Source of the DNA: Candidatus Uhrbacteria bacterium
GTDB taxonomy: Bacteria; Patescibacteriota; Patescibacteriia; JACRJV01
Assembly: GCA_016215325.1 (NCBI GenBank)
Contig: JACRJV010000026.1
Location: 95,955-159,954 of the forward strand
Length of the DNA stretch: 64,000 nt
Direction: 5' to 3'
The first letter of the stretch is position 1. Every line of letters starts with the position of its first letter. A model generated the notes under the pieces. It was not told where the DNA came from. It saw nothing but the letters and a program-made list of their open reading frames with translations, and did not search any database. A program made the translations under genes and the position numbers. Positions 4,786 through 64,000 of the stretch are shown piece by piece.

Positions 4786-6774
<1,989 letters not shown>

Positions 6775-7976: not shown

Positions 7977-7985
7977 ATTTACTAT

Positions 7986-8012: not shown

Positions 8013-8054
8013 AATCATTATATCCACTTTTTAAACGGTGTCAAGGGAGGAGGG

Positions 8055-10427: not shown

Positions 10428-10439
10428 CTCCTTCCGCAA

Positions 10440-10470
10440 AAAACACTCCGGTTCACCGGAGTGTTTTTAT
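10440..10470 (+). terminator. Rho-independent terminator of cspA
   Basis: Stem aacactccgg / ccggagtgtt with a ttca loop, followed by TTTTAT. Confidence 0.8.
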
Positions 10471-10526
10471 GTACCAAAATTCTTCGGAATGGGAGAGTGC
10501 TGGGGGTCATAACCCGTTTTTATGTT

Positions 10527-11398: not shown

Positions 11399-11540
11399 AG
11401 TTTATTCTCTGAATAAGTCCATCTCCTTATTCCACTTCTCAACTCGCAATATAGCATTTTTGTACACTGTCGATTTTGGCTGGTCAATCAATTCTGCTAA
11501 ATCGCAAAGTTCGTTGATTCGCCCGTAGATTACCATTCGC

Positions 11541-11582
11541 AAAATGGGGTCAGCCACCAAATGAAAATGGGGTCAGCCACCA
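11541..11582. repeat. Left terminal repeat of the RAYT element: tandem aaaatggggtcagccacca x2
   Basis: It is an imperfect inverted repeat of tggtgactgaccctatttttcatttgg at 12270-12296. Confidence 0.55.
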
Positions 11583-12247: not shown

Positions 12248-12269
12248 ATGATAGCATTATATCATAATA

Positions 12270-12296
12270 TGGTGACTGACCCTATTTTTCATTTGG
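12270..12296. repeat. Right terminal inverted repeat of the RAYT element
   Basis: tggtgactgaccctatttttcatttgg is approximately the reverse complement of aaatgaaaatggggtcagccacca. Confidence 0.55.
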
Positions 12297-12575
12297 AACA
12301 AACCCAAAATGCCTGGCTCGAACCCATGCGAGAATGGATAAAAGAGGCCCAAACTATAGGTGCAATCGCAAGGAATGACGACCTCTTTGCGAAAAAGGTC
12401 ATCGCCAAAAAAATATTTGGCTCAAACCTCCGTTTGGGGACCCGAAATTTAACGCTCGAATCGATATCGGAGGGGGGAAATGTATTGAAAACCAAAGAGG
12501 AAACGCACTGGGCGGCCTTTGTGGCCGCCCGTGAAAAGTTTTTGCGTTGTCCGGAAATGGACGTTTGTATGATGT

Positions 12576-48205: not shown

Positions 48206-50140
48206 TCAAGACCGCCCTGGGTACTCTTCACCGGCCTGTTCGCCCTCGGCCATGGTACTGCCCCCGGAAATCACGGCTTTAATGCGACGAATGCCAGCGC
48301 TCACCGCTTCCTCCTTGGTGATCTTGAGCGTCCCGACTTGGCTCGTATGCCGCACATGCGGCCCTCCGCAAATTTCGACAGAGTAATATTGCCCCAAGGC
48401 GCCCATCTTGTAGACTTTGACCGTTTCGCTGTAGCGCTCATCAAAAACGCCGGTCGCGTTCTCCGCCCTCGCCTGCTCTAATGGCATCACCTCATAATGC
48501 ACCGGTAAATCCTTCGACAGATGTTCGTTGGTCAACGTTTCGATTTCGGCAATCTGCTGGGTGGTTAACCTTTCGGGATAATTAAAGTCTAACCGCAGAC
48601 GCTCGGAAGTAATGTTACTCCCCCTTTGGTTCACATCGCGGCCCAACACGCGCTTCATGCTTTCGAGCAACATGTGATTGGCGGTATGGAGCCGTACGGT
48701 GTTCACGGCGTGGTCCGCAAGCCCGCCATGAAATTTTTGCCCTGCACCCGAGCGTGAACGCTCTTGGTGCTTTTTGAGCTCTTCGTCAAACGCCGCTCGA
48801 TCGATCATGATCCCCCGTTCAACGGCGAGCTCTTGGGTCATCTCCACGGGGAATCCATAACTTTGGTACAAATCAAACGTTTGTTGCGTGGGTAACGTTC
48901 CCCCCGCGCTCACTGCGCCGCTGGCTTGCTCAAACACTTTGAGGCCAACGGCAAGGGTCTTGCGGAATTTTTCTTCTTCCGCTTGCATAATCAGCGCCAC
49001 ATCATCTTTTTTTGTTGTAAGGTATGGCATCGATCGTGCATATTCTTCGATCACTGCTGCCGCAACATCAGCGCAGAATCCCGGCCGAAGATCAAGGACA
49101 TTGCCAAACCGGATCGCCCGGCGCATGAGTCGGCGCGTAAAATAGCCTTGATCTTTATTCGATGGCAATGCCCCATCGGCAATCAAAAATGTTGCCGCCC
49201 GAAGGTGATCCATAACGACACGGAATGCCTTTGTGTGCTCTGGATCCGCGCCATAGGATTTGCCGCTGGATTGTTCGAGGATTGTTTTTGACTTTGCAAA
49301 CAAATCAATCAAGAACATATCCGGGCTATCATTGAGTGCCGCAGCGATCCGTTCAAGCCCTCCGCCAAAATCAACGTTTTTTTGTGGGAGTTCTTTAAAC
49401 CCCTCTTGGACACGCTGGTATTGCATGAACACGCTGTTGCCGATTTCAAAAAACCGTCCGCAATCGCAATTGACATGGCAGGGGAGGGCCTTCCATGGCG
49501 ATTGCTCATGCAATTCCCGCTCCACTCCAAAATCCCAAAAGATTTCGGTGTCTGGTCCCCCGGGCTCCCCCACCGGCATATTAGCTGGTACCCCGGATCG
49601 GCTCCACCAATTCTTTTTTTCATCGTAGTAAAAGATCCGGCCGTCGCGCATACCCAGTGTTACTGCATCCGCATACGCAATCGCATCAATGCCAACCTGT
49701 GCATAGACTTCCTTCCAAAGCGCTACCGCTTCGTCATCGCGAGGGATCCCGATTTCTGCATTGCCGCCAAACACCGTACCATACAATCGTTTGGGATCAA
49801 GCCCGACCTCCGTAGTCAAAAATTCAAACACCCACGGGATCTGCTCTGCTTTAAAATAGCTGCCCAACGACCAATTACCCAACATTTCAAAAAAAGTCGT
49901 ATGGCGATTGTCGCCCACCTCATCCATATCAACAGCGCGGAAACAGCGTTGGGAATTTACCAACCGATTGCCTTCAGGGTGCTTTTCTCCTAGCAAAAAT
50001 GGGACCAACGGCTGCATGCCCGAACTTGTAAATAACGTCGTCGGATCGTTATCCGGCAACAACGGCGCCGAGGGCAGCACCGCATGGCCGCGAGCCTTAA
50101 AAAAATCAAGATATTTTTGGCGGAGTTCATGGGAAGTCAT
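48206..50140 (-). CDS. alaS: Alanine--tRNA ligase, short form lacking the C-terminal DHHA1 extension
   Basis: MTSHELRQKYLDFFKARGH…FTSSGMQPLVPFLLG…NRHTTFFEMLGNWSLG…; editing-domain HxxxH region present. Confidence 0.85.
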   Translation of the reverse strand: MTSHELRQKYLDFFKARGHAVLPSAPLLPDNDPTTLFTSSGMQPLVPFLLGEKHPEGNRLVNSQRCFRAVDMDEVGDNRHTTFFEMLGNWSLGSYFKAEQIPWVFEFLTTEVGLDPKRLYGTVFGGNAEIGIPRDDEAVALWKEVYAQVGIDAIAYADAVTLGMRDGRIFYYDEKKNWWSRSGVPANMPVGEPGGPDTEIFWDFGVERELHEQSPWKALPCHVNCDCGRFFEIGNSVFMQYQRVQEGFKELPQKNVDFGGGLERIAAALNDSPDMFLIDLFAKSKTILEQSSGKSYGADPEHTKAFRVVMDHLRAATFLIADGALPSNKDQGYFTRRLMRRAIRFGNVLDLRPGFCADVAAAVIEEYARSMPYLTTKKDDVALIMQAEEEKFRKTLAVGLKVFEQASGAVSAGGTLPTQQTFDLYQSYGFPVEMTQELAVERGIMIDRAAFDEELKKHQERSRSGAGQKFHGGLADHAVNTVRLHTANHMLLESMKRVLGRDVNQRGSNITSERLRLDFNYPERLTTQQIAEIETLTNEHLSKDLPVHYEVMPLEQARAENATGVFDERYSETVKVYKMGALGQYYSVEICGGPHVRHTSQVGTLKITKEEAVSAGIRRIKAVISGGSTMAEGEQAGEEYPGRS

Positions 50141-50494
50141 AAGCGATTACCATTGTACTCAAATTGTCGCATTGGAGCAAGAAAAAGTCACCGGAATCTT
50201 GAAAGCATGGGCCCAACGCAAGGGGGGGCGGAGCGCAGAGCATTGGCTTTACAAGGTGAACGCGCGAGCGACCGCAGTGTTGCAGCTCGCTTGTTCGATC
50301 CGGTGACTTGAGTGAATGTGGCGGCCGAAGAGGCGGTACTGGGATCAACCGTGGCGCTGCAGATTTACATAAGTATCACGCGGCGCCGCGAATGTGGCGG
50401 CGATCGTACCGCCTGCTCCGGCCATGATCGAGAAGACTTACACGTCTGAGGCTTTGTGTACCAGCAGCCGCAAACGCGTAAGTCCTCAATAGTG

Positions 50495-51685
50495 TTAACG
50501 TTCCACCATTTCAATAATCCCCCCTCCCAGCAGTTCAAGCCCTTCCGCAGTGTCCTGGTAGAATACCACGCTTTGGCCGGACGTCAAAGCCCGCTCCGGC
50601 TGATCGAACGTGCAGATGATCGTCTGCGCACTGGCCCCTGGAACTCCCGCCTCAGCGGGGCCCCGCCCTGGCGGTGACTGGCCCCTGGAACCTGAAACCA
50701 CGGCTGTCGCGCCCGGGTGCCGATACCGCGGCTTAGCAATCACCCGAATCGGCTCTGGTGGAGGTTGACCGCTCAACCAGTTCACTTTTGATAAAATAAC
50801 AGTCCGCGCAAAAAGCGTCTTATCTTCTGCACCGATCGAAACCACCAGAGTATTTGTTACATAATCTTTTTGTGCCACATAATACGGCCCGCCGCCGCCC
50901 AGCCCCAACCCCTCGCGCTGGCCAATCGTATAAAATGCGAGCCCGCGATGCCGGCCGATTTCCTCGCCCGTTGTGGTCACAACCACTCCTTCAGATTGCT
51001 GCCGGATTCGCGATTGTAAAAACTCTTGGACATTGTTTTTAATAAAACACACCTCTTGGCTTTCCTTTTTGAGCGCCACGGGCAACTCCATCTCTTGCGC
51101 CAATGTCCGCACCTGCGGCTTGGCGAACTCGCCAATCGGGAATAGGAGGCGCTTGAGCTTTTCTTGCGTCAAGGTATACAAAAAATACGACTGATCTTTG
51201 TGGGGGTCTTGGGCGACAAACAATCGTTGCCGAAATTGGGAATTGGGAATTGGGAATTGAAAATTTCGTACATAGTGCCCGGTGGCAAAATAAATACTCT
51301 CTTTCTCTGCTTCTGCCGCTTCAGAAAGGATCCTGTCAATCAGCTCAAACTTAATCGTTCGATTGCACTCCACGCAAGGGTTCGGGGTGAGCCCAGACTC
51401 ATATCCAACCAAAAATGGTTTCACCACGTTCTGACGAAATTGTTCTCGTAGATCCATCACCGTCAACGGGATGCCAAGGTGGTCGCACACGCGTTGGGCA
51501 TCATTCATGGCATCCAAATTGCAGCAATTGGTAAAATCCTTTCCACCCGGCACAAGGCCATCCACATCCCCCCAGTAGCGCATAAAAACTCCGCGTACCT
51601 CAAAACCGCGCTGCCCAAGCAGCGCGGCGGCGACCGAGGAATCAACTCCGCCGGACATCGCGACGTAGACTATTGTTCTATCCAC
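50495..51685 (-). CDS. mnmA: tRNA-specific 2-thiouridylase MnmA (carries an in-frame copy of the heptamer repeat)
   Basis: PP-loop VAMSGGVDSSVAA; …KDQSYFLYTL…; C-terminal GQSVVFYQD…GGGII. Confidence 0.85.
   Translation of the reverse strand: MDRTIVYVAMSGGVDSSVAAALLGQRGFEVRGVFMRYWGDVDGLVPGGKDFTNCCNLDAMNDAQRVCDHLGIPLTVMDLREQFRQNVVKPFLVGYESGLTPNPCVECNRTIKFELIDRILSEAAEAEKESIYFATGHYVRNFQFPIPNSQFRQRLFVAQDPHKDQSYFLYTLTQEKLKRLLFPIGEFAKPQVRTLAQEMELPVALKKESQEVCFIKNNVQEFLQSRIRQQSEGVVVTTTGEEIGRHRGLAFYTIGQREGLGLGGGGPYYVAQKDYVTNTLVVSIGAEDKTLFARTVILSKVNWLSGQPPPEPIRVIAKPRYRHPGATAVVSGSRGQSPPGRGPAEAGVPGASAQTIICTFDQPERALTSGQSVVFYQDTAEGLELLGGGIIEMVER
51231..51268. repeat. Intragenic copy of the (AATTGGG)n heptamer element, in-frame in mnmA (encodes NFQFPIPNSQFR)
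   Basis: cgaaattgggaattgggaattgggaattgaaaatttcg with palindromic ends cgaaatt/aatttcg. Confidence 0.65.
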
Positions 51686-51990
51686 AAATTTATTTTATAC
51701 CATCATCTCGTTTAATAATCCGATCAAGATTCGAAACAATCTCTTGGAGCCGTGCACGGAATTCTGGCAACATCGTGGGGCTCATGTGCTTGAAGATTGC
51801 ATCATAGTCTTCGCTTGCTGCCCCGCGCAGTCCCGACCAGAGCGTATTCAATGCATGAATAAACGGCGCGCTCTCAACAGGCTGGGAGAAATCGACGTTC
51901 TCAACTGCGTGCCCCCCCCGCTACAGGATTAATGGGCCGATTGGGATCAAACGGTTTTTCGCCTTCCATAGACGTTTTTTAATAGATACA

Positions 51991-53895
51991 TCATTGCCGC
52001 AACCGCATGCTCTGCCCAGGCTTCAGCACCGTGGGTTTCACAGGGACCGGTTTGGGCTCTGGGGCCCCGCGATCTGAGGCCCCAACAATGGGGGATGTAG
52101 CCGGGGCATCGGCTGGTGATGGTATTGCGCTTGGCCCACCGCTCGTTCTGGGTTGTTGTACTCGGCCGCGGAAATCTACCGGCTTCATCTGCATCGCCGC
52201 ATCCAGACTCATGGGGGCAGGCGTCTCTGCGCTTTTGGCAGACAGAGCAGGAGGTTTCTCTGCGACAACCACCACCGGCGCTGCTCTGCCGGAGCGTACC
52301 TCTTTGAGGCACTCTTTGCAATAAATCGGTTTGGAGGGGTCTGGAATAAAATTGAGCATGGTGTCGGTCCCGCAGCGGCTGCACTTGTATACGGCTGGGT
52401 TGTCCACCGGCGGCTTGGCGTTTTCGGGCGGCTTCTTTTTTTTGCGTTTTTTTGTTTGGAGTTCACCACTGCCTGCTCCGCTGCCCGGGATGGCTGCGGG
52501 GGCGGGGACAATCGTTTTTACGGGTTGCGCCGCAGGCGCTGCATCCATTCGGCGTACCACAACAGGGGCGCTGGAGGCAGCCGAACCCGTTGTGGTCGCA
52601 ATCCCTTCGCTCCATCGATTAATCTTATCCTCAACCACCTCTCTGCTCGTGCCATACCGTTCGCGAGAGACTGCGATCACTTTCGCGTTGTTGTTTTGCC
52701 GCTGCGAAAGCGGCGGCAAAATCGTTGCAGAAAATGGGTCCGAAGAGACTCCGTCAATCATGAGTTTCAAATATACGGAGTATTTAGCCAGATTCACAAG
52801 GTCTTCCTCCGTAAATCGGGGGGTAAACTCTGGCACCAATTTGAGCGCATCCGCCCCGCCCACCCGGAACGAAATAATCGTGCCCACGTTGCCGAACACC
52901 GCGGCTGCCACTTTCTCATCCAGCTGTTCAATATACTGGTGTGCGACAATAAGGCTCAAACGATATTTCCGCGCCTCGGACAAAATGTTAGAAAAACTTT
53001 CTGTCGCAAAATTCTGGAACTCATCCACGTATAAGTAAAAGTCTCGGCGGTCATCTTCGGGCGTGTCCACGCGCTCCATGGCGGCCAGTTGAATCTTGGT
53101 GATTAGCATCCCGCCCAAAAGCCTTGAATTATCCTCTCCAATGCGCCCTTTTGCCAGGTTCATCACAAAAATCTTCCCGCTGTCCATGATATCGCGCACG
53201 TTAATGGTCGAACGGACTTGGCCCACAATATTGCGGATCACCGCCGTCGACAGAAATTGTCCAACCTTATTTTGGATTGGCGCGATGGCTTCGGATGCGT
53301 AGCGGTCATTGTATTTCGCAAATTCATTCACCCAGAACGATTTGACCACCGGGTCGTTAATCTTGGCGATCACGCGTTTACGGAAGTTGGTGTCCGCCAA
53401 CATCCGGTTGATCCCCAGCAGCGTCGATCCCGGGTAATCCAAAAGCGCTAAGACAGTATTATTTAAGATGTATTCCATGCGCGCGCTCCACACATCCGGC
53501 CAGATTTTTTTGAACACGCCCATGAGTCCCGACGCGATCAAGTGTTTGTGCGTTTCATCCACGGTTTCGAGTATATTGAATGCAAGCGGATAATTCACAT
53601 CCGACGGATTCATATAGACCACGTCGTTGATCCGATGCGAGGGAATAAAATCAAGGATGCGCTCTGCAAAATCGCCATGCGGATCCACGATGCCCACCCC
53701 ATGTCCGGCCATGATGTCATTGAATAAGAGATTTTCGAGCAAATTGGTTTTGCCCATGCCGGTTTTCCCAATCACATACATATGCCGGCGTCGATCGTCG
53801 GTTTTAATGCCAAACCGACGCCGTTGGTTCCGAAAGTTCGTTTCGGCAAACACGGCGATTTCATCATTATGGTCGTGGTCGTATTCTATCGGCAC
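51991..53895 (-). CDS. VirD4/TraG-type (type IV coupling protein-like) P-loop ATPase with a C-terminal zinc ribbon
   Basis: Walker A IGKTGMGKTNLL; VDPHGDF; Walker B/DEF YLYVDEFQNF; ARKYRLSLIVAHQYIEQL; C-terminal CSRCG…CKEC. Confidence 0.55.
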   Translation of the reverse strand: MPIEYDHDHNDEIAVFAETNFRNQRRRFGIKTDDRRRHMYVIGKTGMGKTNLLENLLFNDIMAGHGVGIVDPHGDFAERILDFIPSHRINDVVYMNPSDVNYPLAFNILETVDETHKHLIASGLMGVFKKIWPDVWSARMEYILNNTVLALLDYPGSTLLGINRMLADTNFRKRVIAKINDPVVKSFWVNEFAKYNDRYASEAIAPIQNKVGQFLSTAVIRNIVGQVRSTINVRDIMDSGKIFVMNLAKGRIGEDNSRLLGGMLITKIQLAAMERVDTPEDDRRDFYLYVDEFQNFATESFSNILSEARKYRLSLIVAHQYIEQLDEKVAAAVFGNVGTIISFRVGGADALKLVPEFTPRFTEEDLVNLAKYSVYLKLMIDGVSSDPFSATILPPLSQRQNNNAKVIAVSRERYGTSREVVEDKINRWSEGIATTTGSAASSAPVVVRRMDAAPAAQPVKTIVPAPAAIPGSGAGSGELQTKKRKKKKPPENAKPPVDNPAVYKCSRCGTDTMLNFIPDPSKPIYCKECLKEVRSGRAAPVVVVAEKPPALSAKSAETPAPMSLDAAMQMKPVDFRGRVQQPRTSGGPSAIPSPADAPATSPIVGASDRGAPEPKPVPVKPTVLKPGQSMRLRQ

Positions 53896-53904
53896 AAAAT
53901 CGTA

Positions 53905-53975
53905 TGAATTCCCAATTCCTAATCTCTAATACCCAATGAAATGGCGGGTATTGGAAATTGGAAATTGGAAATTGG
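53905..53975. repeat. Palindrome of (CCCAATT/CTAAT)n and (ATTGGAA)x3 arms between the ATPase gene and its membrane partner
   Basis: gaattcccaattcctaatctctaatacccaatg … cgggtattggaaattggaaattggaaattt. Confidence 0.7.
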
Positions 53976-53979
53976 AAAT

Positions 53980-55401
53980 TTACGCTACCGGAAGGTCTCC
54001 CGGCACTCCATCTTGCTCGTGCGCTGGCTCTTGTGCCGGTGTACGGAAGGGGGCGTGTTTCACGCCGGTAGACTCGCGCGAAATCCGCGAACCGGCATAC
54101 CGCTCCGAGACCGGCAACGCAAATGGCGGCTCGGCCTGCTTGGTGAGGGCCTTACTAATCAGCGGCGCCTTTACCGTTGCCACTGGGAAGTGGTAGAGCG
54201 TTGCGAGCTCTTCGATGTTGAGCACTTTACCCTCACCTTCTCCAGCCTCATCCTCGCGCAAATGAAACGCATGCATAAGCTTTCGTTGTTTGCTCGCAAT
54301 CCGTTCCTTCACAAAATAATATTTTGCGGCCGTCGTCACCTTCCCGCTCGGGCTCAACCCATTCATGTGTTGGGTGCTAAACTGGCGCATGGCACCCAAA
54401 ATCGGTACCACCCCCCGCGCTTTGTTAAAGACTTCTTTTTTGGCGATATACACAAATCGCATTTTGGTAAAATACCCGATCTTCGCCATTTTGAGCTGCA
54501 CCCCCTCTAACACCGCGCGTTCGCCCGGCGTTAAATATTGCACTTTATTGGGAGCCTCGTCTCCCCCGCCATGCTCACCACCGCCTTCACCCGGTGGGAA
54601 TATAAACGAAAGCAAAAATTCAAAGAGCTTAACTGGGTACCCCAATAACGTTGTGATAAAGGGTGGCGCGTGCTCACGATGCGCCCCAATCATCTCGTCG
54701 ACGATGTGCTGGGCGTGCTCTTTCCACCCATCCCCGGTCGGCTGCACGACATACTGGAGCCAAATATGCTCATCAGGTCCCAGTTTGCTCATACTCTCGA
54801 GCATTCCCGCTAAGGGGTCTTTGAGCTCTTGGCTCATGGTGTGTTCAAATTCGGGATAGGTGCGCAACGGGTAAGCTTCGTGCTTCGTAAGAATAAATTC
54901 CGTGCCCCACATGTCCCACTCCGGGTTGGGGAATTTATGCGGGAAGTGATGCGTGTAGTCTTCCACTTCGATAATCTCGGCATCCGGATACTGCGAAAAA
55001 AATGCGGCTTCGATAAGATCACGGAATGCCGTGTTGGTCCATACAAAAAATCGAATATATCCGCCGCTGGAAACAATCTCAAAGCTAAACCGCTCTTGCG
55101 TTTTGCCCAGCCACCATTTTTCGTAGAAATCTGCTCCCGAAAGCGCGCCATGCACTTGAGCAAAAATTTGTTCGACAGCTTTGGGGCTTTGTTCATTCAG
55201 TTTCGGGATATTAATCGCCAATAGCAGGAATGAACGCTGATGTTCAAAGTGATGTCGGACGCGCTTGAGCCACACGAGCTGTGAAATTTTGATACCCCCC
55301 CAGACAACAATAATCCACCCGCCGTGGGTAATGATGTACCACAAGAGGGAAAAAAATGAGAGATTCGCGAAATTCGCAAAGAAATCAAGGTTCAATACCA
55401 T
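53980..55401 (-). CDS. Hypothetical membrane protein co-oriented with, and 5' of, the VirD4-like ATPase
   Basis: N-terminal TM pair (FFSLLWYIITHGGWIIVVWGGI…); large soluble domain with a Gly-rich acidic loop GEGGGEHGGGDE. Confidence 0.45.
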   Translation of the reverse strand: MVLNLDFFANFANLSFFSLLWYIITHGGWIIVVWGGIKISQLVWLKRVRHHFEHQRSFLLLAINIPKLNEQSPKAVEQIFAQVHGALSGADFYEKWWLGKTQERFSFEIVSSGGYIRFFVWTNTAFRDLIEAAFFSQYPDAEIIEVEDYTHHFPHKFPNPEWDMWGTEFILTKHEAYPLRTYPEFEHTMSQELKDPLAGMLESMSKLGPDEHIWLQYVVQPTGDGWKEHAQHIVDEMIGAHREHAPPFITTLLGYPVKLFEFLLSFIFPPGEGGGEHGGGDEAPNKVQYLTPGERAVLEGVQLKMAKIGYFTKMRFVYIAKKEVFNKARGVVPILGAMRQFSTQHMNGLSPSGKVTTAAKYYFVKERIASKQRKLMHAFHLREDEAGEGEGKVLNIEELATLYHFPVATVKAPLISKALTKQAEPPFALPVSERYAGSRISRESTGVKHAPFRTPAQEPAHEQDGVPGDLPVA

Positions 55402-55521
55402 ACATGACGAGAATGTCTATGGAATATCGGTGGTCGAGGCCCGCATTGGTTGGTAGGTCTCGTCAGCTGGCCGGCTCCCGATGACCGTTTGACAATACGG
55501 GCATCGAGATCCGATAACCCA

Positions 55522-56658
55522 TTATCCCTGCGCTTTTACCGTTTGGGCGAGTTGATACCGACCGTCAGCCGTTCGATCAAAACGGGAACGATCGGTCAGC
55601 GCAAGCACAATCGTACTCTTGCGCACCATGCGCCGTTTGAGGACCTCTTGGATGATTGTATCGCGATGGAGGGGTGCGGGGGAAGTGGAAAGAATCTCTG
55701 CGATCACATCCGAAACAACCCCGGGGGTATACCCCCATTCGGCCAAGGCATAAATGCCCCGCCCCACAAGGATATACTTCTTATCGAGGATCAGTTCATT
55801 ATGGACGGTCGATGGGTACGCCGTCTTTTGGTCAAATCCGGTTTCGTTAATGCGTTGGGTAATGTCATTAAAGTGCAACGGTTTCCCCTCTTTCTTGAGA
55901 ATCAAATAAATCTTGTCATTCACGCGTCGCGGTGCAATCACATTCCAATGATGCAGACCCCACTGGCCTAAGACATTCTTGCGGATCCGTTTTGAAAGTC
56001 GAATATGCGATCGGATGACGGATTCCGAATGGTCCGGATGCCGATCAGACAGTGACCGGAAAAAAATCGGCTCATCCATCGGTGCGGCATGTGCTTCCAA
56101 CACCGCTATGGCAGAAGTAACTGTCTTAAGCCATCCCTCGATATCAAAAAAATGGAGTTTCCAACCCTCATGCCGATCTTTGGTTTCAGCCAACGCGTCA
56201 ATCCGATCACCCAGTAAATGCTCAAGGACAAATTCCAACGCTTGTCGTACCCCGCTATCCGGTGATGACGTATCGCTATGTTCGCAAATGACTTCCCACA
56301 ACTGTTGTCGGTTGATAATCCCCCCATGGCCTTCAATTAAATGGACGGTGCTCGTAATCATGGGGTCGACGACATCGCGCACAGAAGCGTCGCGGACGAG
56401 TTCTTTGAGCCGCGCCAGCGCGCTGGACTCGATTTGGCGGACGCGTTCACGGGTGATCGCAAATTGCGACCCAATATCCTTGAGAGTGAGTTGTTGTTGG
56501 CCATATAAGCCAAATCGGCGGGTCAAGATGTCCCGCTCGCGGCTCGTGAGGCGCGAAAATAGCGCATCCAACATCTCCGGGATCTGGAGATGCGATGCTC
56601 TCTCGTTTACTTGCGCTTCCATGACCTTATCGAGAATCGAATGGTCCATAAGAACCAA
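55522..56658 (-). CDS. DNA-binding protein with a sigma-70 region-4-type HTH at the N-terminus and about 290 aa of unknown C-terminal domain
   Basis: LTSRERDILTRRFGLYGQQQLTLKDIGSQFAITRERVRQIESSALARLKEL. Confidence 0.5.
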   Translation of the reverse strand: MVLMDHSILDKVMEAQVNERASHLQIPEMLDALFSRLTSRERDILTRRFGLYGQQQLTLKDIGSQFAITRERVRQIESSALARLKELVRDASVRDVVDPMITSTVHLIEGHGGIINRQQLWEVICEHSDTSSPDSGVRQALEFVLEHLLGDRIDALAETKDRHEGWKLHFFDIEGWLKTVTSAIAVLEAHAAPMDEPIFFRSLSDRHPDHSESVIRSHIRLSKRIRKNVLGQWGLHHWNVIAPRRVNDKIYLILKKEGKPLHFNDITQRINETGFDQKTAYPSTVHNELILDKKYILVGRGIYALAEWGYTPGVVSDVIAEILSTSPAPLHRDTIIQEVLKRRMVRKSTIVLALTDRSRFDRTADGRYQLAQTVKAQG

Positions 56659-56760
56659 CTATCAGCAGGGTCAAATAAAATTGCTTAAAATATGCCAAAA
56701 AATTCTGCTTTTTTTGATATAAACATAATATAGCACAAAATTAACATTCTGTCAAGAATT

Positions 56761-57930
56761 TTGCTTTTCTCCCTACTTTGTGGTATATCTACGACAATTC
56801 ATGATGTCATCCGGTCCACTATGGTACTTTCAAAAGAAATACAACAAGCATGGTTCAAATTATCACTCTTCCCCCACTTTGGACCGGCGCGCCTCATGCG
56901 GATTTACTCGCGATGCCCAGATCCGCAATTATTATTCGGCCCAGAAGCACGCCCTGTCCTCGAGCAAGCGCATATTGAAAACGCGCTCATCGAACAATTT
57001 TTAAGTATCCAACACGACCCGTCATGGCAAGCGCGATGGCGCACCATTGAGGATGAACACATCAGCATCACGGTGTTTGGCAGCGCAACATACCCGCCGC
57101 TGCTATCGACCATTGCTCATCCGCCGGTCGTTCTGTTCCATCGCGGGCCACTGGAGCAGCCGTGGCAGAACATGATCGCAGTGGTCGGCACTCGCTCGCT
57201 CTCGCCCTATGGCCGCGCAATCACCCCACTGCTCGTTGGGCAAATCGCGACGCGCGGCGTCGGTGTTGTCAGCGGGCTTGCCTTTGGCATTGACGCGCTT
57301 TCCCATCAAGCCGCATTGGAGGCCAATGGCCCAACGGTGGCGGTCATCGCTAGCGGCGTTGATCGAGCTTCGATCTTTCCCTCGGCGCACTCAATGCTTG
57401 CCGAGCGCATTGTGGATTGCGGGGGGTGCGTCATGAGTGAATTTCCTCCCGGTACCATGCCGCTCAAACACTATTTTCCTATGCGCAATCGCATTATTGC
57501 CGGGCTTGTCCGCGCAACGCTGGTCATTGAGGCGGATACGCAGTCTGGGGCGCTCATTACTGCGCGGTCTGCTTTAGAGGAAAACCGCGATGTTTTTGCC
57601 GTACCGGGCCCCATCACGACACAAACGTCTGCCGGCACCAATGCCCTTATCCGATTGGGCGCCCACTGCGTTACCAATGCAAATGATTTGCTGGACGATC
57701 TGGAACTTTCCACAGTAAGAACAGCGATTGTTCCTCGGCGGCCGCAATACGCCGATATCAACACGCAAGAACGCTCCCTCCTTGATCATCTCACCGCCGA
57801 ACCCATGGAGATAGATACGATCATTCGTGCGTCTGGACTGCCCGCTACCGACGTGTTGAGTACGTTATCGTTAATGGAATTGAAGGGTTGGGTGCGCTCC
57901 GTAGGGCCGTCGTTGTTCGTAAAAGTGTAA
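56761..57930 (+). CDS. dprA: DNA-processing protein DprA (Smf)
   Basis: …[14 protein letters not shown]…[33 protein letters not shown]…[11 protein letters not shown]…. Confidence 0.85.
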
Positions 57931-57989
57931 CAGATATTCGACATGCGCATCGATGGTGTGTTAGACTATCGCCAATGCATTGCAAAATT

Positions 57990-58346
57990 ATGCCTCCATC
58001 AAAAAAAATAAAAACCCTGGTGATTGTAGAGTCGCCCACCAAAGCAAAGACCATCGCAAAGATGCTTGGCCGCGAATTTAGCGTAAAATCATCATTTGGT
58101 CACATCCGCGATCTGCCAAAAAGTAACATGGGGATCGACCTTGCCCACGACTTCGATCCCCAATATGTGATCCCGAAAGAAAAGCAGCAGCATGTCACAG
58201 AATTAAAGGCCGGCGCGAAAGCCGCTGGGCGTATCATCCTTGCGACGGATGAAGACCGCGAAGGAGAAGCAATCGCATGGCACCTTGCCCAAGCCCTTGG
58301 CTTGGAGAGCGCAAAAGGCAAAGCGCAAAACCCGTTGATCGGATAG
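57990..58346 (+). CDS. topA: DNA topoisomerase I, N-terminal TOPRIM fragment; ends at a frameshift
   Basis: …[18 protein letters not shown]…GHIRDLP…[15 protein letters not shown]…, terminating just before the conserved RIVFHEITK. Confidence 0.7.
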
Positions 58347-60280
58347 TGTTTCACGAAATTACCAAGCGGGCGATTGAGCAGGCGCTGGAGCACCCGCGCA
58401 CCATCAACAAGGATCTTGTTGATGCGCAACAAGCGCGGCGCGTGCTCGATCGGCTCGTCGGGTACGAACTTTCGCCATTCTTATGGCGCAAAGTGGCCCG
58501 CGGGCTATCGGCCGGACGCGTGCAATCAGCGGCGCTGCGGCTGATTGTCGAGCGAGAAGAAGAACGCGAGCAATTCAAGCAACAAGAATACTGGACCATC
58601 GAGGCCGAAATGCAATCAGCATCCGGATCATTCCATGCTGTGCTCACGCACCTTGATAACACTCTGCTATCAAAGTTCGCAATCCCTTCTCAGCAGCGCG
58701 CCGATGAAATTTTGAGTGCCATTGCCCACGGCAAGAGCACCATTGACAAGATCGAAAACAAATCTGCCCGCCGCACGCCCCCGCCGCCGTTCACCACCTC
58801 AACACTCCAACAAGAAGCCAACCGTCGCCTTGGGTACTCGGCAAAACAGACCATGCGCCTCGCCCAACAACTCTACGAAGGAATCGATTTGGGAGCAGAA
58901 GGGCACGCAGGCCTTATCACCTACATGCGTACTGATTCGGTCAACCTCTCGCAAGATTTTCTCGCTGAAGCCAAAGAAGCGATCCAACAACAATTTGGCC
59001 CAACGTACTGGCAGAGCTCGCGCGCATTCACCACAAAATCAAAACTTGCCCAAGAAGCGCACGAGGCAATCCGACCGTCCATGGCTCATCGATCGCCAGA
59101 ACTCGTGAAACCATTCCTTGATCCGCAACAATGGAGACTCTATGACCTGATTTGGCGGCGAGCGGTGGCAAGCCAAATGGCTTTGGCCGAAGTGGATCAA
59201 ACCACCGTGGCAATCCGCACCATCGCCAAACAGCACGCCCAATGGCATGCCAGCGGTGCGGTGATCCGTTTTGACGGTTGGCTTCGTTTGTACCCCACGA
59301 ATACCAAGGAGGGAGAATTGCCAGCACTTTCGGAAGGCGCGCCCGTCACACCAAATCCGATCACACCAGTCCAACATTTTACCCAAGCGCCCGCACGCTA
59401 TAGTGATGCAACTCTCGTCAAGGCTTTGGAAGAGCACGGGATTGGCCGCCCATCCACATATGCCCCGACCATTTCAACGGTCGTTGACCGTAATTACGTT
59501 GAGCGCGACGATGACAAGCGCTTGAAGCCCACGGACATGGGCCGACTCGTCACAAAGGTACTCAAAGAACACTTCCCGAATATTGTCGATCTTGCCTTTA
59601 CCGCAACCATGGAAGATGACCTCGATGCGGTGGCGGAAGGCAAAAAGAAATGGCAGCCGCTCATTGCATCATTCTATACGCCGTTCCACGAAAATCTCCT
59701 CGCAAAAGAAGATGTTGTTTCCAAGAAAGAATTAACCGAAGAACACAGCGACGAGCTGTGCCCCAAGTGCGGCAAGCCCATGCTCATCAAGATCGGACGA
59801 TTTGGGAAATTCTATGCCTGTAGCGGTTACCCCGAATGCAAAAGTACCAAACCCCTTGCCACGGAGGCGGCGGAAACCGGGGCCGCAGCGGCCTCGTCCG
59901 AACCAGCGCCCGATTGCCCCGAATGCGGCAAACCCATGGGGCTGAAACGCGGGCGCTTTGGTTCCTTCTGGGGCTGCACGGGGTACCCCGAATGCAAGGG
60001 CATCAAACGCATTGAGCGTTCCACGGGCATTGTCTGCCCAAAATGCGGGAAGGGTGAAATTGTCGCTCGCCGAAGCAAACGTGGCAAAACATTCTACGGG
60101 TGCAACACGTATCCAGATTGCGACTTTGTACTCTGGAGCAAACCCGTCGTGGATCCAGAAACCAAACAGGCAAAACTTTGCCCAAAGTGCAAATCCTTTC
60201 TGGTATTCGGAGCAAAAAATACAATTCGGTGTTCGAATAAGGAATGTGGGTACAGCGAGGAATCGACGATGGCGGAATAA
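58277..60280 (+). CDS. topA: DNA topoisomerase I, main body with four C-terminal zinc ribbons (+2 frame relative to the N-terminal fragment)
   Basis: [16 protein letters not shown]…[20 protein letters not shown]…[16 protein letters not shown]…; four CPxCG…C zinc ribbons. Confidence 0.8.
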
Positions 60281-60320
60281 TGTGGTACGGTGAACGTATC
60301 AGCATTGAATTCTCTTTTCT

Positions 60321-60509
60321 ATGCTCAATGAAGAGTTCAAAAAAGTTCGTGAAGAAATAAAGTCTGCCAAAGACGATACCTTGACCGCATTGGATGAACA
60401 ATCAGTCATCCTTCGGCGCTTAGACCAAGAACGGACATTCGCCTTGGAAAAGGTGAAGAAGTCAGAGGAAGAGGGGCGGCAGATAAAACTCAAACTTGCG
60501 ATTGCATAG
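60321..60509 (+). CDS. Small coiled-coil protein
   Basis: 62-aa ORF followed by a strong terminator hairpin at 60583-60620. Confidence 0.3.
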   Translation: MLNEEFKKVREEIKSAKDDTLTALDEQSVILRRLDQERTFALEKVKKSEEEGRQIKLKLAIA

Positions 60510-60582
60510 CCGTATCAACATCGTGCGCGTTTCCGGGAGGGTACTACTGCTAACTAAACATTGTAACTCAATAAAAAAAGTA

Positions 60583-60620
60583 TGAGCCGCCGGACAGGAA
60601 GAACCTGTTCGGCGGCTTTG
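60583..60620 (+). terminator. Rho-independent terminator GCCGCCGGACAGG-aagaa-CCTGTTCGGCGGC followed by TTTGTCTC
   Basis: Stem and U-tract read from the sequence. Confidence 0.6.
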
Positions 60621-60827
60621 TCTCTTGCATGGTAGGAAACGATGTGGTCTAATACGAGTGGTGGGGTAGGATACACTCCCTAACATCACCTTTGGTTTTC
60701 TAGGGGTTAATATCACTACCTCACCGCATCAAATAATACGAACACCGCGAATAGCGCGGTATTTATTCTGCGCTCGCAATCCCCTCACCCTAACCCTCTC
60801 CCGCGGGAGAGGAAACTCTGCGGTAAT

Positions 60828-60875
60828 AACAAAACTCCTCCGTTCCGTTTCGGACGAAGGAGTTTTGCGTTTTTT
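60828..60875. terminator. Bidirectional terminator hairpin AACTCCTCCGT…ACGAAGGAGTT with T-runs on both strands
   Basis: Followed by TTGCGTTTTTTGG on the + strand and by TTTGTTATTAC on the minus strand (serves the gene 60938..63493). Confidence 0.6.
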
Positions 60876-60937
60876 GGAGTATGCCTTACGGCATCCCTAA
60901 CATCACACATTCACGCTATCACAAATTTGTGCAAATG

Positions 60938-63493
60938 TCAATACGTTGACGCCCCTGCAGGCGCATAAACGCTCAACGCATTCGAAAGACTGGTGATCAT
61001 AACAACATCGCCTGCAGAGGATGCACTCCTTGTAATGCGAACTTTTATCGATTGAGCGGCGATACTCCTAGGGAACTGGGCATGGAATACACTCTGCTGC
61101 CACGATTGCATGACATCACCCCCTGCAACCGGCCGATACACACCGTCTGCCCCAGCAACAAAAATCGCGACTGAGCTCGTTGAGGCCCCGACACCCTCCA
61201 ACGCCAACGTGAGCGATTGGATTGTTTGGAGTTGATTAAGTTGCATTCCAACGCTCGTTGAATCATCCGGGGCGATGATAACCCGTGACGGTGTTGATTC
61301 GTCCGCAACGCTCATCGAAGAAGGCTCTTGACCGGGCGTGACAATCACGGGGCACGATTGTGCTGCCGACAGAATATCACCCGAAGAGGAACGCAGCTCC
61401 ACCTGCACAGGCCACCCGTCGGGGGTGGGGGCTGGTGCAAAGGTATGGTCAATACGAAGATTTGCTTGAGCACTACCGAAGATGGCGGTATTGGATGGGA
61501 CCTGTACGCGTTTGCCATCACCCCAGTCGATAGAGATATCCGGAGTTTGTCCGACATCCGATCGATTCTTCACTGCGAACACCATTGTTGATGGTCCCCC
61601 CGCAGCAGGGTATCGGTTCGGTAACAATCCAATCGCCTCGATAGTGAGCGGATAGGATGGCCGATCCGTCGATGCGGCATTGCAGGACAAAAGAGAGTCA
61701 ACGGTGAGCGCCGCATCTTCTTTAGAAGGCACCGCGCCCCCGGCAACCAGCACCGGACCGTGGAATGGAAGCCCTGGAATCGACGGCAGATCCACGGCCA
61801 TGGCGGCGCTCATAAAGGGCATAAACCACTGGATCCCGCTCACCGTGGCGTGCGCTCCGGGGAAGGAATCTGCCCCACCGATGTGGAACTGGAGCTGCTG
61901 CGCTCGGTCGCACTGCGTGTCCATGCGCAGTTCAAATATTTTTGCTTGTCCGGCTCCCAACCGGATAGGAGTATTGCGATATGTGCTATAGATAAGGTTA
62001 TTCGGCATGACGTTCTCCCAAACGGCTACTTCATTGATTTGAGGATCCGTGATCTCTACTAACCGGGCTCGTCCCGGCTTGTTCATCCCATTATTGCATG
62101 AACCCGTACCAACGAATTCAATGGTCTTCACACGGATATCAGTTGTTTCCGATCGCAATCCAAATCGAAACACCGCCTCATCAATTCGGCCTCCGGTAAA
62201 CCCGGCAATGGGATCCTCGGGCTGTTCAACCAGCAATAGGCTGGGGATGATCATGTGGGCGCCGACGGTGCTTTCCGCTTCGGTAGCCGAAATCGGGTTC
62301 GTGATGGCGACCGAGACCGCTTCCAACGTAACGGCATTGCGTGCCGCTATGCCGGGTTCGATCCCGAGTCGAGCGAGGATAATGTCGCTGCCGATCCGAT
62401 TGAGATCACCGGACAAGACTACATACACCGAACTGTTATTGGGAATCCGCAACGGCTCCTCCGAAAAATCGATTCGCGCTTTGCCGCGGGCATCCAGGGC
62501 AACCCCTCGATCAGAGCCAAGAGCGATCTGATGCCGCATGGTCGGATCGGTATCAGCAAAAACATGTATAGACGACAGCGGCGCAACAACAGCATTGTTC
62601 CTGGATTGGCTTTGGGCGGTAAGCACAACGGGGATGGCGCTCACAACGACATCAGCCCCTCGAGCAGTCAGGCGATATTGTATCCATTGGGTACTGCGCT
62701 CGCCGGAAGAAAAAATGTACTTGAGCGGGAGCTCACGGGAAAGACTTACCTCCAAACGGGCTTCTGCTGCCTCCGACGATGGTGGATCCGTTGGCCCGAC
62801 GACAGACTCCTGCGCTTGGATTTGTACTCCCTCTGTGCTTGTGGAAGAACGCACCGGCCCCAATGGCAAAACCCCATTCACATCGTGGTAAGCGACCCCC
62901 ACCGTGCCGACGAGCCGCCGGGGGCGAACACGCGCATCCGCAGGGACGGTGAATCGGGGCGCGATCTCGGCGAGCCCCACATCGGTGGTGGTGCCACTGA
63001 CTGCATCAATCACGAAACGGAATCCGAGCGTTCGCTTCGGTTCTGCCAGCATCACGGTCGCATTTGGAAACCCCGGATCTGCTAATGACGCGATACCAGC
63101 AATGGACCCATCAGGACGCGGGGCCGGCAGTCGAGACCCGTCAAAGAATTCGAAATGGCCATCCGTGATCGACTGGAGAGCGCTCCCGCGATCGAATAAT
63201 CGGATGGATTCGAGGATCACTTCTTTTGGGAACTGCACCTCGATAAAGGCGCCGCTGCCCTGCCCGTCACTCACCCACTCACCGCTGGCGTTGGGCAAGG
63301 CATTCGTACAGTGATATCGATTACTGGCATCCGGTTTTGTCGTTGAACAGACAACCGTCCAATCAAGGGCGCTCTCGGATGTATTCCCAAACGATTGACC
63401 AGGCCGCACCCAATTGGGTATAACAACCATAGCAGCCATGGCGAGCACCCCCAGTGTGGCCATGGATGCAATATGATAATGGTGCTTATTCAT
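60938..63493 (-). CDS. Large secreted / surface protein of about 850 aa with an N-terminal signal peptide (start trimmed to MNKHHYHIASMATLGVLAMAAMVVI)
   Basis: Signal-like N-terminus and a long Ser/Thr/Gly/Ala/Val-rich body typical of extracellular beta-rich proteins. Confidence 0.5.
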   Translation of the reverse strand: MNKHHYHIASMATLGVLAMAAMVVIPNWVRPGQSFGNTSESALDWTVVCSTTKPDASNRYHCTNALPNASGEWVSDGQGSGAFIEVQFPKEVILESIRLFDRGSALQSITDGHFEFFDGSRLPAPRPDGSIAGIASLADPGFPNATVMLAEPKRTLGFRFVIDAVSGTTTDVGLAEIAPRFTVPADARVRPRRLVGTVGVAYHDVNGVLPLGPVRSSTSTEGVQIQAQESVVGPTDPPSSEAAEARLEVSLSRELPLKYIFSSGERSTQWIQYRLTARGADVVVSAIPVVLTAQSQSRNNAVVAPLSSIHVFADTDPTMRHQIALGSDRGVALDARGKARIDFSEEPLRIPNNSSVYVVLSGDLNRIGSDIILARLGIEPGIAARNAVTLEAVSVAITNPISATEAESTVGAHMIIPSLLLVEQPEDPIAGFTGGRIDEAVFRFGLRSETTDIRVKTIEFVGTGSCNNGMNKPGRARLVEITDPQINEVAVWENVMPNNLIYSTYRNTPIRLGAGQAKIFELRMDTQCDRAQQLQFHIGGADSFPGAHATVSGIQWFMPFMSAAMAVDLPSIPGLPFHGPVLVAGGAVPSKEDAALTVDSLLSCNAASTDRPSYPLTIEAIGLLPNRYPAAGGPSTMVFAVKNRSDVGQTPDISIDWGDGKRVQVPSNTAIFGSAQANLRIDHTFAPAPTPDGWPVQVELRSSSGDILSAAQSCPVIVTPGQEPSSMSVADESTPSRVIIAPDDSTSVGMQLNQLQTIQSLTLALEGVGASTSSVAIFVAGADGVYRPVAGGDVMQSWQQSVFHAQFPRSIAAQSIKVRITRSASSAGDVVMITSLSNALSVYAPAGASTY

Positions 63494-63582
63494 AGGGTAG
63501 AATTCATCTGTACTATAGCAAAAAGCCATTGCTCGTGGAAGTGAATATCCCCCACGCACCAACGATGGTACAATGAGAACGT

Positions 63583-64000
63583 ATGTCCACCCCCCCCACA
63601 TTCCAACGCCTCAAAACCATTTTGCTCACCAACGCCCCAAAACGGGACATCGAATTAGTCCATCGAGCGTATCATTTTGCAAAAGATGCTCACAAGGGCC
63701 AGCGGCGCGCAAGCGGAGAAGAGTATATTGTTCATCCGCTGGCAACAGCCATCACGCTGGCCAAGATGCGGCTGGATAACGCAACGGTTGCGGCAGGCCT
63801 GCTCCACGATGTTTCGGACGATACCCCGATCACCATCAATGAGATTGAAAAGGAATTCGGCTATGATGTTGCGCAACTGGTCAGCGGCGTCACGAAGCTC
63901 GGGAAAGTCCGTTATCGCGGGATTGATCGGTACGTCGAAAACTTGCGCAAGATGTTTGTGGCCATGGCGCAGGACATCCGGGTCATCATCATCAAATTTG
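63583..64000 (+). CDS. relA: (p)ppGpp synthetase/hydrolase RelA/SpoT family, N-terminal HD domain; truncated by the window end
   Basis: Hand translation gives …HRAYHFAKDAHKGQRRASGEEYIVHPLATAITLAKMRLD…AAGLLHDVSDDT…MFVAMAQDIRVIIIKF, a SpoT HD-domain match. The ORF track omits it because it has no stop in the window. Confidence 0.8.
   Translation, partial: MSTPPTFQRLKTILLTNAPKRDIELVHRAYHFAKDAHKGQRRASGEEYIVHPLATAITLAKMRLDNATVAAGLLHDVSDDTPITINEIEKEFGYDVAQLVSGVTKLGKVRYRGIDRYVENLRKMFVAMAQDIRVIIIKF

Follow-up and report, generated by a model that had tools for sequence, protein, structure and literature searches.

Does a coupling-protein-like ATPase that is encoded beside dprA belong with its neighbours to a single DNA translocation or uptake module? 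The question arises from a window of 64,000 nucleotides on the chromosome of a Candidatus Uhrbacteria bacterium (CPR/Patescibacteria), where a preliminary description had grouped this ATPase with a membrane protein, a protein bearing sigma-70 region 4, dprA and topA. A large part of bacterial diversity belongs to the Patescibacteria, which cannot synthesise their own nucleotides and are host-attached; hence, the transport of DNA and protein across the envelope is central to their biology. The positions given for the five genes proved correct, with an open reading frame present for each, and the motifs quoted for the ATPase (IGKTGMGKTNLL, VDPHGDF, YVDEFQNF and ARKYRLSLIVAHQ) are genuine. The dprA and topA genes occupy the plus strand and are divergent from the other three, which occupy the minus strand. 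We consider it rather likely that the interval comprises two unrelated units, a patescibacterial split-motor gene set on the minus strand and a housekeeping dprA-topA pair on the plus strand.

The ATPase resembles type IV coupling proteins

Profile matches identify the ATPase (634 aa; 51991..53895, minus strand) as a soluble, coupling-protein-like member of the FtsK-HerA superfamily. After its core (residues 1-430), a disordered linker leads to a zinc ribbon and a tail that is again disordered; at the N-terminus, conservation begins with the GTG at 53895. More than 8000 homologues are found, at identities of 55-77%. In alignment A1, residues G43, K44, G46, G48, K49 and T50 of the Walker A motif (GKTGMGKT, residues 43-50; codons 53746..53769, minus strand) are invariant; in the Walker B motif (LYVDEF, residues 288-293; codons 53017..53034, minus strand), L288 to F293 are likewise invariant and are followed by an invariant AHQ at 318-320. 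The treble-clef zinc ribbon (CxxC-x17-CxxC, residues 505-529; 52309..52383, minus strand) matches zf_Tbcl_2 (32 bits) and TIGR04272 (34 bits) through C505, C508, C526 and C529, the first three of which are invariant, and in three related loci (L014, L019 and L031) this domain forms a separate gene just 3' of the ATPase.

The Pfam matches comprise TrwB_AAD_bind (45 bits, cut-off 20.5), which spans residues 33-346, DUF87 (33 bits), in which the likeness to HerA is confined to the P-loop, and TraG-D_C (29 bits, cut-off 22), with no match to CagE_TrbE_VirB. Among NCBIfam models, TraD scores 45 bits and VirB4 17-19 bits (TIGR00929: 17 bits, cut-off 643), while FtsK_SpoIIIE is matched in neither collection. 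A profile search of the PDB retrieved TrwB (E 4e-6) and DotL (E 2e-5), with HerA at only 0.17 and neither FtsK nor VirB4 among the matches. By these profiles the ATPase is nearest to type IV coupling proteins (TrwB, TraD, DotL) and not to FtsK, HerA or VirB4, its structural model being mediocre and unable to tell the four folds apart. This is the class that the preliminary description had preferred over FtsK/HerA. An FtsK/SpoIIIE assignment was rejected as the motor profile and gamma domain are missing, a HerA assignment as the combination of a HerA-type core, its N-terminal barrel and a partner (NurA or an effector) is missing, and a VirB4 assignment by sequence as the scores fall far under the family cut-offs, with coupling proteins nearer.

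Two hallmarks of coupling proteins are nevertheless lacking. The ATPase possesses no hydrophobic segment (its top 19-residue window, at 1.35, is a beta strand) and hence no N-terminal transmembrane domain; the membrane helix comes instead from the adjacent DUF8128 protein, as in a known subfamily of coupling proteins without a transmembrane domain (TMD). Genes of a type IV secretion system (T4SS) or for a relaxase do not accompany it either. The ATPase had been called a stand-alone motor, and indeed no conjugation gene, VirB4 and relaxase included, occurs among the window's open reading frames of at least 300 aa, and none lies in 80 related loci. Competence genes were likewise not found among frames of that size, nor was a paralogue of the ATPase and its partner found in the window.

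A membrane partner with a predicted VirB4-like domain

The partner gene (473 aa; 53980..55401, minus strand) shares its strand with the ATPase gene, which begins 84 nt further downstream, and the partner matches Pfam DUF8128 (PF26449). An N-terminal hydrophobic helix is followed by a cytoplasmic alpha/beta domain and a disordered tail with EPPxxLP and NLP motifs. The protein had been described as having two transmembrane segments. That it is a membrane protein holds, but the number of segments is uncertain, since AF2 draws residues 16-55 as one long helix. The hydrophobic stretch of some 30 residues (residues 14-44; 55270..55362, minus strand), in which the highest Kyte-Doolittle window begins at residue 15, carries a conserved HGGW, and thus a central GG, and leads into a basic stretch, KRVRHH.

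According to structural modelling, the cytoplasmic domain is folded like the N-terminal domain of VirB4, the part of VirB4 that touches VirB3 and VirB8 in R388; the likeness is structural only, and the partner's sequence profile matched nothing in the PDB at E values up to 10.

The partner and the ATPase as a probable split motor

In 62 of 73 related loci the two genes are direct neighbours, separated by a median of 6 nt and often overlapping by 4 nt or 1 nt. Paralogues of 856 aa and 831 aa in loci L027 and L040 are collinear fusions, partner first and ATPase second, and a fused homologue, SEML1_0293 (922 aa, PF10412 at residues 402-719), is found in Southlakia epibionticum ML1 of the Saccharimonadia, where the link rests on one published genome. 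This adjacency, together with fusions both in paralogues and in Saccharimonadia, indicates that partner and ATPase are one split motor, which bears out the earlier view that the ATPase works with its membrane neighbour. The N-terminal domain and C-terminal ATPase domain that characterise VirB4 are both present in the pair, distributed over two genes.

In a tree, all 80 ATPases form a single clade and the loci devoid of a partner fall in nested, derived subclades; these 80 are the loci most similar to the query and belong mostly to two or three classes. The pair is an ancient and tightly linked chromosomal pair across Patescibacteria and, with the sigma region 4 gene, forms an ancestral trio. 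The surroundings of the trio are chromosomal core, with secD-secF upstream and mnmA-alaS-infA-rpsM-rpsK-rpsD-rpoA downstream.

A conserved sigma region 4 neighbour

The third minus-strand gene (55522..56658) encodes a 378-aa protein with sigma-70 region 4 (Sigma70_r4, 55 bits, residues 34-86) followed by HARE-HTH/winged-helix domains (HARE-HTH, 37 bits, residues 250-279). The N-terminal region 4 had been reported correctly, but not as the only recognisable part, the HARE-HTH having been missed. The protein was rejected as a sigma factor, with region 4 alone present and TIGR02937 at 36 bits (cut-off 42.9). Every named match comes from Patescibacteria. Upstream of the gene, a sigma-70-type promoter-like site (56727..56755, minus strand; TTGACA-17-TATATT with TG) matches at 11 of 12 positions, better than any other site within 50000-61000, and the two intergenic gaps downstream of the gene hold no promoter-like and no convincing terminator-like site.

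Of 61 loci, 42 have this gene directly upstream of the pair and in the same orientation; ML1 also has it upstream. The link to the pair by gene order is therefore real, and the neighbourhood of all three minus-strand genes is conserved in relatives. A median of 108 nt separates the sigma region 4 gene from the partner gene, which is more than lies between partner and ATPase, and synteny in this region is generally conserved, which weakens a functional reading of the adjacency. The ML1 orthologue SEML1_0294 is essential and the adjacent ATPase SEML1_0293 is dispensable in co-culture (Wang et al. 2023, PMC10633639). A role confined to activating the pair is thus unlikely for this protein, and the proposal of a dedicated regulator loses ground. 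The protein is probably a factor that binds DNA or RNA polymerase rather than a regulator reserved for the pair.

dprA and topA

The identity of dprA (56761..57930, plus strand) is secure, with TIGR00732 at 230 bits passing the equivalog cut-off of 191, DNA_processg_A at 235 bits and DprA_WH at 49 bits. The topA gene (57888..60280, plus strand) retains all its domains (Toprim, topoisomerase core and zinc ribbons; TIGR01051, 653 bits), divided between two frames: a Toprim frame (58346 being the end of a frame that starts at 57888) and a Topoisom_bac frame (58277-60280), separated by a frameshift near 58320-58335. The gene is hence correctly named, but is not intact in the window. In the relatives L035 (772 aa) and L083 it is intact and in frame; the frameshift may reflect either an error of sequencing or a genuine pseudogene.

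Neither gene belongs to a module with the trio. The dprA-topA genes adjoin the pair in one of 80 related loci, plus one close relative; outside the window, dprA adjoins the trio in L035 and L083 only. They are a conserved pair by themselves, present without the trio in L084, and are encoded on the opposite strand. With adjacency so rare and dprA-topA occurring elsewhere without the trio, the link to dprA is unsupported, and this part of the neighbourhood shows the lack of conservation that the preliminary description had named as grounds for abandoning the module. The dprA-topA genes are a housekeeping pair unrelated to the module and located here only in close relatives.

Possible functions of the pair

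The analysis shows what the genes are, which folds they match, how often their order is kept and where they are fused; how such a split motor might be docked and assembled as a ring, and what it might move in which direction, we infer. The DUF8128 partner would provide anchorage in the membrane together with a cytoplasmic domain of predicted VirB4 N-terminal-domain fold, and the next gene would contribute the motor, a soluble ATPase of the FtsK-HerA superfamily with Walker A/B motifs that is coupling-protein-like and carries a zinc ribbon in its disordered tail, so that the two combined would recreate the VirB4 layout of N-domain plus ATPase domain. The partner may bring the ATPase to the membrane and arrange it as a ring, in which ATP hydrolysis could power or gate the passage of a macromolecule, the substrate most likely being nucleic acid. 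The pair might act alone or dock on the chromosomal T4SS encoded elsewhere in most Patescibacteria, and the sigma region 4/HARE protein encoded upstream, a conserved neighbour, would have an essential role that goes beyond the pair.

It is possible, though on the unlikely side, that the pair is the coupling ATPase of that chromosomal T4SS, which is related to monoderm conjugation systems, and delivers protein or DNA with its N-domain docked on VirB3/VirB6/VirB8-type subunits. The sequence affinity to TrwB, TraD and DotL points this way, as does the modelled VirB4-domain fold that contacts VirB3/VirB8 in R388. The survey of Quinonero-Coronel et al. 2025 (PMC12102498) reports VirB4 in 80% of Patescibacteria genomes and coupling-protein homologues in 2,918 of 3,035, mostly distant from virB4, with possible exaptation noted. 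That coupling-protein genes are often distant from virB4 suits a T4SS encoded elsewhere, but only 148 of 5,713 homologues lie near virB4 and they occur in some 500 more genomes than VirB4 does. In ML1 (PMC10633639), the secretion cluster has no recognisable coupling protein, which again suits this explanation, yet SEML1_0293 is dispensable while the secretion system is essential. For the cores to be 55-77% identical between classes would also be unusual, coupling proteins being heterogeneous according to a review (PMC7434980).

More boldly, the pair, possibly with the sigma region 4/HARE protein, may be a secretion-system-independent nucleic-acid translocator, near-universal in Patescibacteria and, through its VirB4-type N-domain and coupling-protein-type motor, preserving an architecture intermediate between VirB4 and coupling proteins; we offer this as a speculation that is unlikely to hold. 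If true, the machine could take DNA in, whether for transformation or to scavenge nucleotides, or send it out.

A ComFA-type motor pulls single-stranded DNA through ComEC. It is doubtful, and in our estimate quite unlikely, that the pair is a stand-alone motor of DNA uptake or export serving natural transformation together with DprA, for instance in place of such a motor. The adjacency of dprA in the window, L035 and L083 is offset by the absence of dprA-topA from 79 of 80 related loci and by its divergent orientation and conservation as its own pair (L084), and the surroundings of the pair, in the window as in the clustered loci, are free of comEC, comF and pilus genes. The coupling-protein-like ATPase and the zinc ribbon in a basic disordered tail do suggest nucleic-acid binding. 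Phenotypes are compatible as well, as comEC, comF, dprA and SEML1_0293 are all dispensable for growth of ML1 (PMC10633639). The family occurs in 96% of Patescibacteria genomes, more than the share with VirB4 in the same survey (PMC12102498), which argues against strict dependence on a T4SS.

A housekeeping chromosome or DNA pump that replaces FtsK in division or segregation, with the sigma region 4/HARE protein as its DNA-recognition subunit, is very improbable. It would fit the very high conservation, the housekeeping neighbourhood and the essential DNA-binding neighbour in ML1, but ML1 has a canonical essential FtsK (SEML1_0096, with 4TM, alpha, motor and gamma domains), and its dispensable SEML1_0293 already suggests normal division and segregation without the ATPase. 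The missing FtsK_SpoIIIE match speaks against such a pump too.

Defence islands are typically patchy and variable, and an anti-phage module of HerA/DndH/MADS type, with a HerA-like ATPase scaffolding an effector, is scarcely credible for a near-universal, highly conserved family amid ribosomal, tRNA-synthetase and Sec genes, whose partner matches no PADLOC model and which lacks adjacent nuclease, Sir2 and methylase genes.

Comparison with known systems

The split motor of DUF8128 partner and ATPase belongs to the same family as the "T4CP homologues" of the survey (PMC12102498) and SEML1_0293 (PMC10633639). In the sections of the two papers that were searched, we found no description of the DUF8128 partner, the VirB4-like fold, the split/fused relation or the sigma region 4/HARE neighbour, and no published description of a VirB4-like split architecture was found. 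What is new beyond the survey is that one orthologous group of ATPases is paired with a DUF8128 membrane protein, that DUF8128 receives a structural assignment, the modelled VirB4 N-domain fold, and that the pair is fused in other lineages. This provides a concrete architecture for a coupling-protein-like family and a hypothesis testable in the genetically tractable ML1; a motor acting without a secretion system would bear on the divergence of VirB4 and coupling proteins.

The closest parallels are coupling proteins without a TMD that have membrane partners, namely TraJ/TraI of pIP501 and the TraG-TraJ pairs of R27-type plasmids (PMC7434980). As in these, a TrwB/TraD-like ATPase devoid of its own membrane segment adjoins a presumed membrane anchor. 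Unlike them, the pair is chromosomal, near-universal in the phylum and far more conserved, has no relaxase, oriT or secretion genes nearby, and has a partner of ~470 aa with a large cytoplasmic domain resembling the VirB4 N-domain rather than a small polytopic one. In contrast to VirB4 (TrwK of R388) and VirB3-VirB4 fusions, its halves are separate genes, and VirB3, VirB6 and VirB8 genes are not adjacent. EccE-EccC of type VII (ESX) systems is a much weaker structural match, EccC being a multi-domain FtsK/SpoIIIE-type ATPase, and other ESX components are absent here.

The essential (in ML1), phylum-specific sigma region 4/HARE-HTH protein is a candidate transcription or DNA-handling factor. 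It shares region 4 with the C-terminus of RpoD (E 1e-17), though without sigma regions 2 and 3 and under the superfamily cut-off, and its HARE-HTH resembles that of the RNA polymerase delta subunit (RpoE) of Firmicutes (TIGR04567, 35 bits); its domain order is new with respect to both.

Identity and class of the ATPase

The 634-aa ATPase is encoded at 51991-53895 on the reverse strand, and this ORF contains all of the motifs quoted for it in the preliminary description, together with a CxxC-x17-CxxC ribbon. Profile searches returned TrwB_AAD_bind (45 bits, residues 33-346) and TraG-D_C (29 bits); the match to DUF87, the HerA model, was confined to the P-loop stretch, and FtsK_SpoIIIE gave none. 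Among family models, TraD scored 45 bits as against 17-19 bits for VirB4. When a profile built from 20 homologues was compared with all PDB sequences, the matches included TrwB (4e-6) and DotL (2e-5), HerA appeared only at 0.17, and VirB4 and FtsK were absent. The coupling-protein class proposed earlier is thereby borne out, at least in so far as sequence profiles would place the ATPase there. Walker A, Walker B and many further positions are invariant in the alignment, and the more than 8000 database homologues share 55-77% identity in the core, a very high level for an ATPase of this kind. Examination of hydrophobicity revealed no membrane segment.

In the public annotation this gene (P0001, 596 aa) begins at the Walker A motif, which is 38 residues too late (window 53782-53895, reverse strand); conservation among homologues extends to the GTG at 53895 and takes in an N-terminal Y-x-HDHENE motif. 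The C-terminus (51991-52030, reverse strand) is a disordered tail ending in a conserved short motif, PGQ-x-(I/V/M)-(K/R). Among the PADLOC models, the ATPase matches mad8 (MADS defence system) best, and at 58 bits this match exceeds the Pfam coupling-protein score; mad8 may belong to the same ATPase branch, and the MADS preprint contains no domain information on it.

A membrane partner with a VirB4-like fold

The gene for the 473-aa partner (53980-55401) likewise lies on the reverse strand and stops 84 nt short of the ATPase, which follows it. The protein matched no family in local copies of Pfam or NCBIfam, and precomputed annotation assigns it to PF26449 (DUF8128), a family of which our literature search found no mention. 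When the partner profile was run exhaustively against representative sequences, it gave 3,368 clusters at 50% identity, the matches listed being close relatives. The same profile retrieved nothing from PDB sequences at E values up to 10. An AlphaFold model, rated good (pLDDT 79, pTM 0.74), consists of a long hydrophobic helix (residues 16-55), an alpha/beta domain extending to approximately residue 410, and a disordered tail. The ten best Foldseek matches of this model were all TrwK/VirB4 chains, and since neither fold-match list contained a P-loop ATPase other than VirB4, it is the non-ATPase N-terminal domain of VirB4 that the partner matches. Basic residues directly follow the hydrophobic helix and the C-terminus of the partner is naturally fused to the ATPase in some proteins (see below); hence the large domain must be cytoplasmic. 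The tail (residues 424-473; 53980-54130, reverse strand) carries a conserved EPPxxLP and a terminal P-x-NLP, and these short motifs, like that of the ATPase tail, look like docking peptides as judged from their sequence.

Evidence for a proposed split machine

We assembled 80 loci encoding the closest relatives of the ATPase, one genome per species. In 62 of the 73 loci with sufficient flank, the partner gene immediately precedes that of the ATPase in the same orientation; the median gap is 6 nt, and overlaps of 4 nt and 1 nt are frequent. Furthermore, fused paralogues in which a partner-like N-terminal half precedes a coupling-protein-like ATPase occur at two loci (L027:162-2732, 856 aa; L040:11200-13695, 831 aa), and these align collinearly to both window proteins. 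For Southlakia epibionticum ML1, the homologue SEML1_0293 has been annotated as a 922-aa protein with its coupling-protein domain at 402-719 (Wang et al. 2023, PMC10633639), and this is the same fused arrangement. In a neighbour-joining tree, the 80 ATPases and that of the window form a single clade that excludes the fused paralogues, and the eleven partner-less loci sit in two nested, derived groups. The fused paralogues share genomes with the split pair and are flanked there by other genes; a search of the window found no fused paralogue, secDF or separate zinc-ribbon gene.

On the best-supported reading, the pair represents a translocation ATPase that is split in two and docked at the membrane. 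DUF8128 would supply a membrane anchor and a VirB4-type N-domain, and the downstream gene a coupling-protein-type motor whose zinc ribbon is likely to bind nucleic acid; we infer ring assembly, membrane docking and a substrate for the pair. The ribbon is a detachable module of the system, since one of the two partner-less groups encodes it as a gene of its own just downstream of the ATPase (L014:11946-12278, L019:12108-12464, L031:4444-4779). The product of 110-118 aa has two copies of the CxxC-x17-CxxC domain and a glycine/arginine-rich tail, and a literature search on this motif gave nothing useful. In the other partner-less group (L006, L007, L012, L022, L025, L045 and L057; about 5000-12500 in each), nrdR, nrdD, nrdG and the gene for a small protein of 81-143 aa come before the ATPase, and an RNase T/DnaQ-type exonuclease gene comes after it; the small protein has a C-terminal membrane helix and occupies the place of DUF8128. 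This context hints at a link to nucleotide or DNA metabolism.

The upstream sigma-region-4/HARE-HTH gene

The 378-aa protein encoded at 55522-56658 does possess the Sigma70_r4 domain reported previously (residues 34-86); this is not its sole recognisable part, as a HARE-HTH is also present at 250-279. It was rejected as a sigma factor, having only region 4 at a score under the family cut-off. The family is large and its named members are all from Patescibacteria, where proteins combining sigma-70 region 4, HARE-HTH and further winged-helix domains are widespread. Each of the two modules united in such a protein contacts RNA polymerase elsewhere, one in sigma and the other in delta. A literature search found no paper mentioning HARE-HTH in CPR bacteria.

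The gene is directly upstream of and collinear with the partner in 42 of 61 loci, at a wider gap (median 108 nt) than that between partner and ATPase. On this strand of the window, a strong promoter-like site occurs only upstream of it, and no convincing terminator separates the three genes. Many genomes are, however, syntenic across the whole region, with secD-secF upstream and mnmA, alaS, infA and the rpsM-rpoA operon downstream, so that adjacency alone is weaker evidence here than elsewhere. In ML1, which belongs to a different class, SEML1_0294 has the architecture of the window gene and immediately precedes SEML1_0293; transposon sequencing found SEML1_0294 essential and SEML1_0293 non-essential (PMC10633639). 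This difference speaks against the suggestion of a purely dedicated activator and argues for a wider role.

dprA, topA and the remainder of the window

It had also been proposed that dprA (56761-57930, on the strand opposite to the three genes) and topA (57888-60280, forward strand) form a module with the ATPase. This neighbourhood was conserved at only one of the 80 loci (L035, with the divergent arrangement of the window) and in a close relative, L083, one of only two loci recovered by a metagenome scan for DprA. The other, L084, is a distant relative (39% identity) in which dprA and topA are adjacent with none of the three genes within 8 kb. On the strength of the low count and this independent occurrence, dprA and topA were rejected as members of the module, and for these two genes the preliminary description is refuted by its own test, a neighbourhood that relatives do not conserve. 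L084 indicates instead that they form a conserved pair of their own, a pairing found in Bacillus subtilis as well.

The topA gene is split into two overlapping frames (a Toprim ORF at 57888-58346 and the remainder at 58277-60280) by a one-base shift near 58320-58335, beside short A and C runs. It is intact and in frame in L035 (772 aa) and L083. From the sequence the break looks like a single-base deletion, which could be an assembly error or mean that topA, normally essential, is a true pseudogene here.

A database protein with 100% identity assigns the window to a Candidatus Uhrbacteria genome. The remaining window is ordinary chromosome, encoding DnaK/DnaJ, a penicillin-binding protein, MraW, a Mur ligase, ribosomal proteins, rpoA, alaS and mnmA. 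As noted in the preliminary description, no other conjugative machinery is apparent: ORFs of at least 300 aa in the window included no VirB4, relaxase or competence genes. The alanyl-tRNA synthetase (48206-50140, reverse strand) is short at 644 aa (614-617 aa in relatives), the typical bacterial enzyme being near 870 aa. An 887-aa protein (60938-63601, reverse strand) that combines a DUF7402 domain with a hydrophobic segment at its N-terminus is found at the same position with 52% identity in L083 and is probably a surface protein.

Possible roles of the pair

Both the ATPase family and the fact that it stands alone have been published before. Quinonero-Coronel et al. 2025 (PMC12102498) counted 5,713 VirD4-type homologues, spread over 2,918 of the 3,035 Patescibacteria genomes, and VirB4 in 2,417; only 148 of the homologues were near virB4, and the authors note possible exaptation. 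Within the portions of the literature covered by our search, we found no earlier description of how the partner folds, of the pair being split in some cases and fused in others, or of the essential gene conserved next to it.

Two functions may be considered for the pair. It may serve a type IV secretion system encoded far away on the chromosome, though this is doubtful. The ML1 system is essential and its cluster is without a recognisable coupling protein (PMC10633639). In the published table, ML1 has a second coupling-protein-like gene, SEML1_0142 (1019 aa, TraM-recognition domain), which is essential and preceded by two small hypothetical genes (together SEML1_0140-0142); as the coupling ATPase of that system it is more plausible than SEML1_0293.

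Distinctly less probable is DNA handling independent of secretion, the import device suggested previously included. As to import, comEC, comF and dprA are dispensable in ML1, where transformation requires comEC (PMC10633639). Finally, defence and FtsK replacement are unlikely, as the partner has no PADLOC match and the distribution is wrong for defence, despite the 58-bit mad8 match of the ATPase, and ML1 already has a canonical essential FtsK.

The arrangement proposed for the pair resembles that of known systems: coupling-protein subfamilies without a transmembrane domain depend on adjacent membrane proteins, as exemplified by TraJ/TraI of pIP501 and by TraG-TraJ pairs (PMC7434980).
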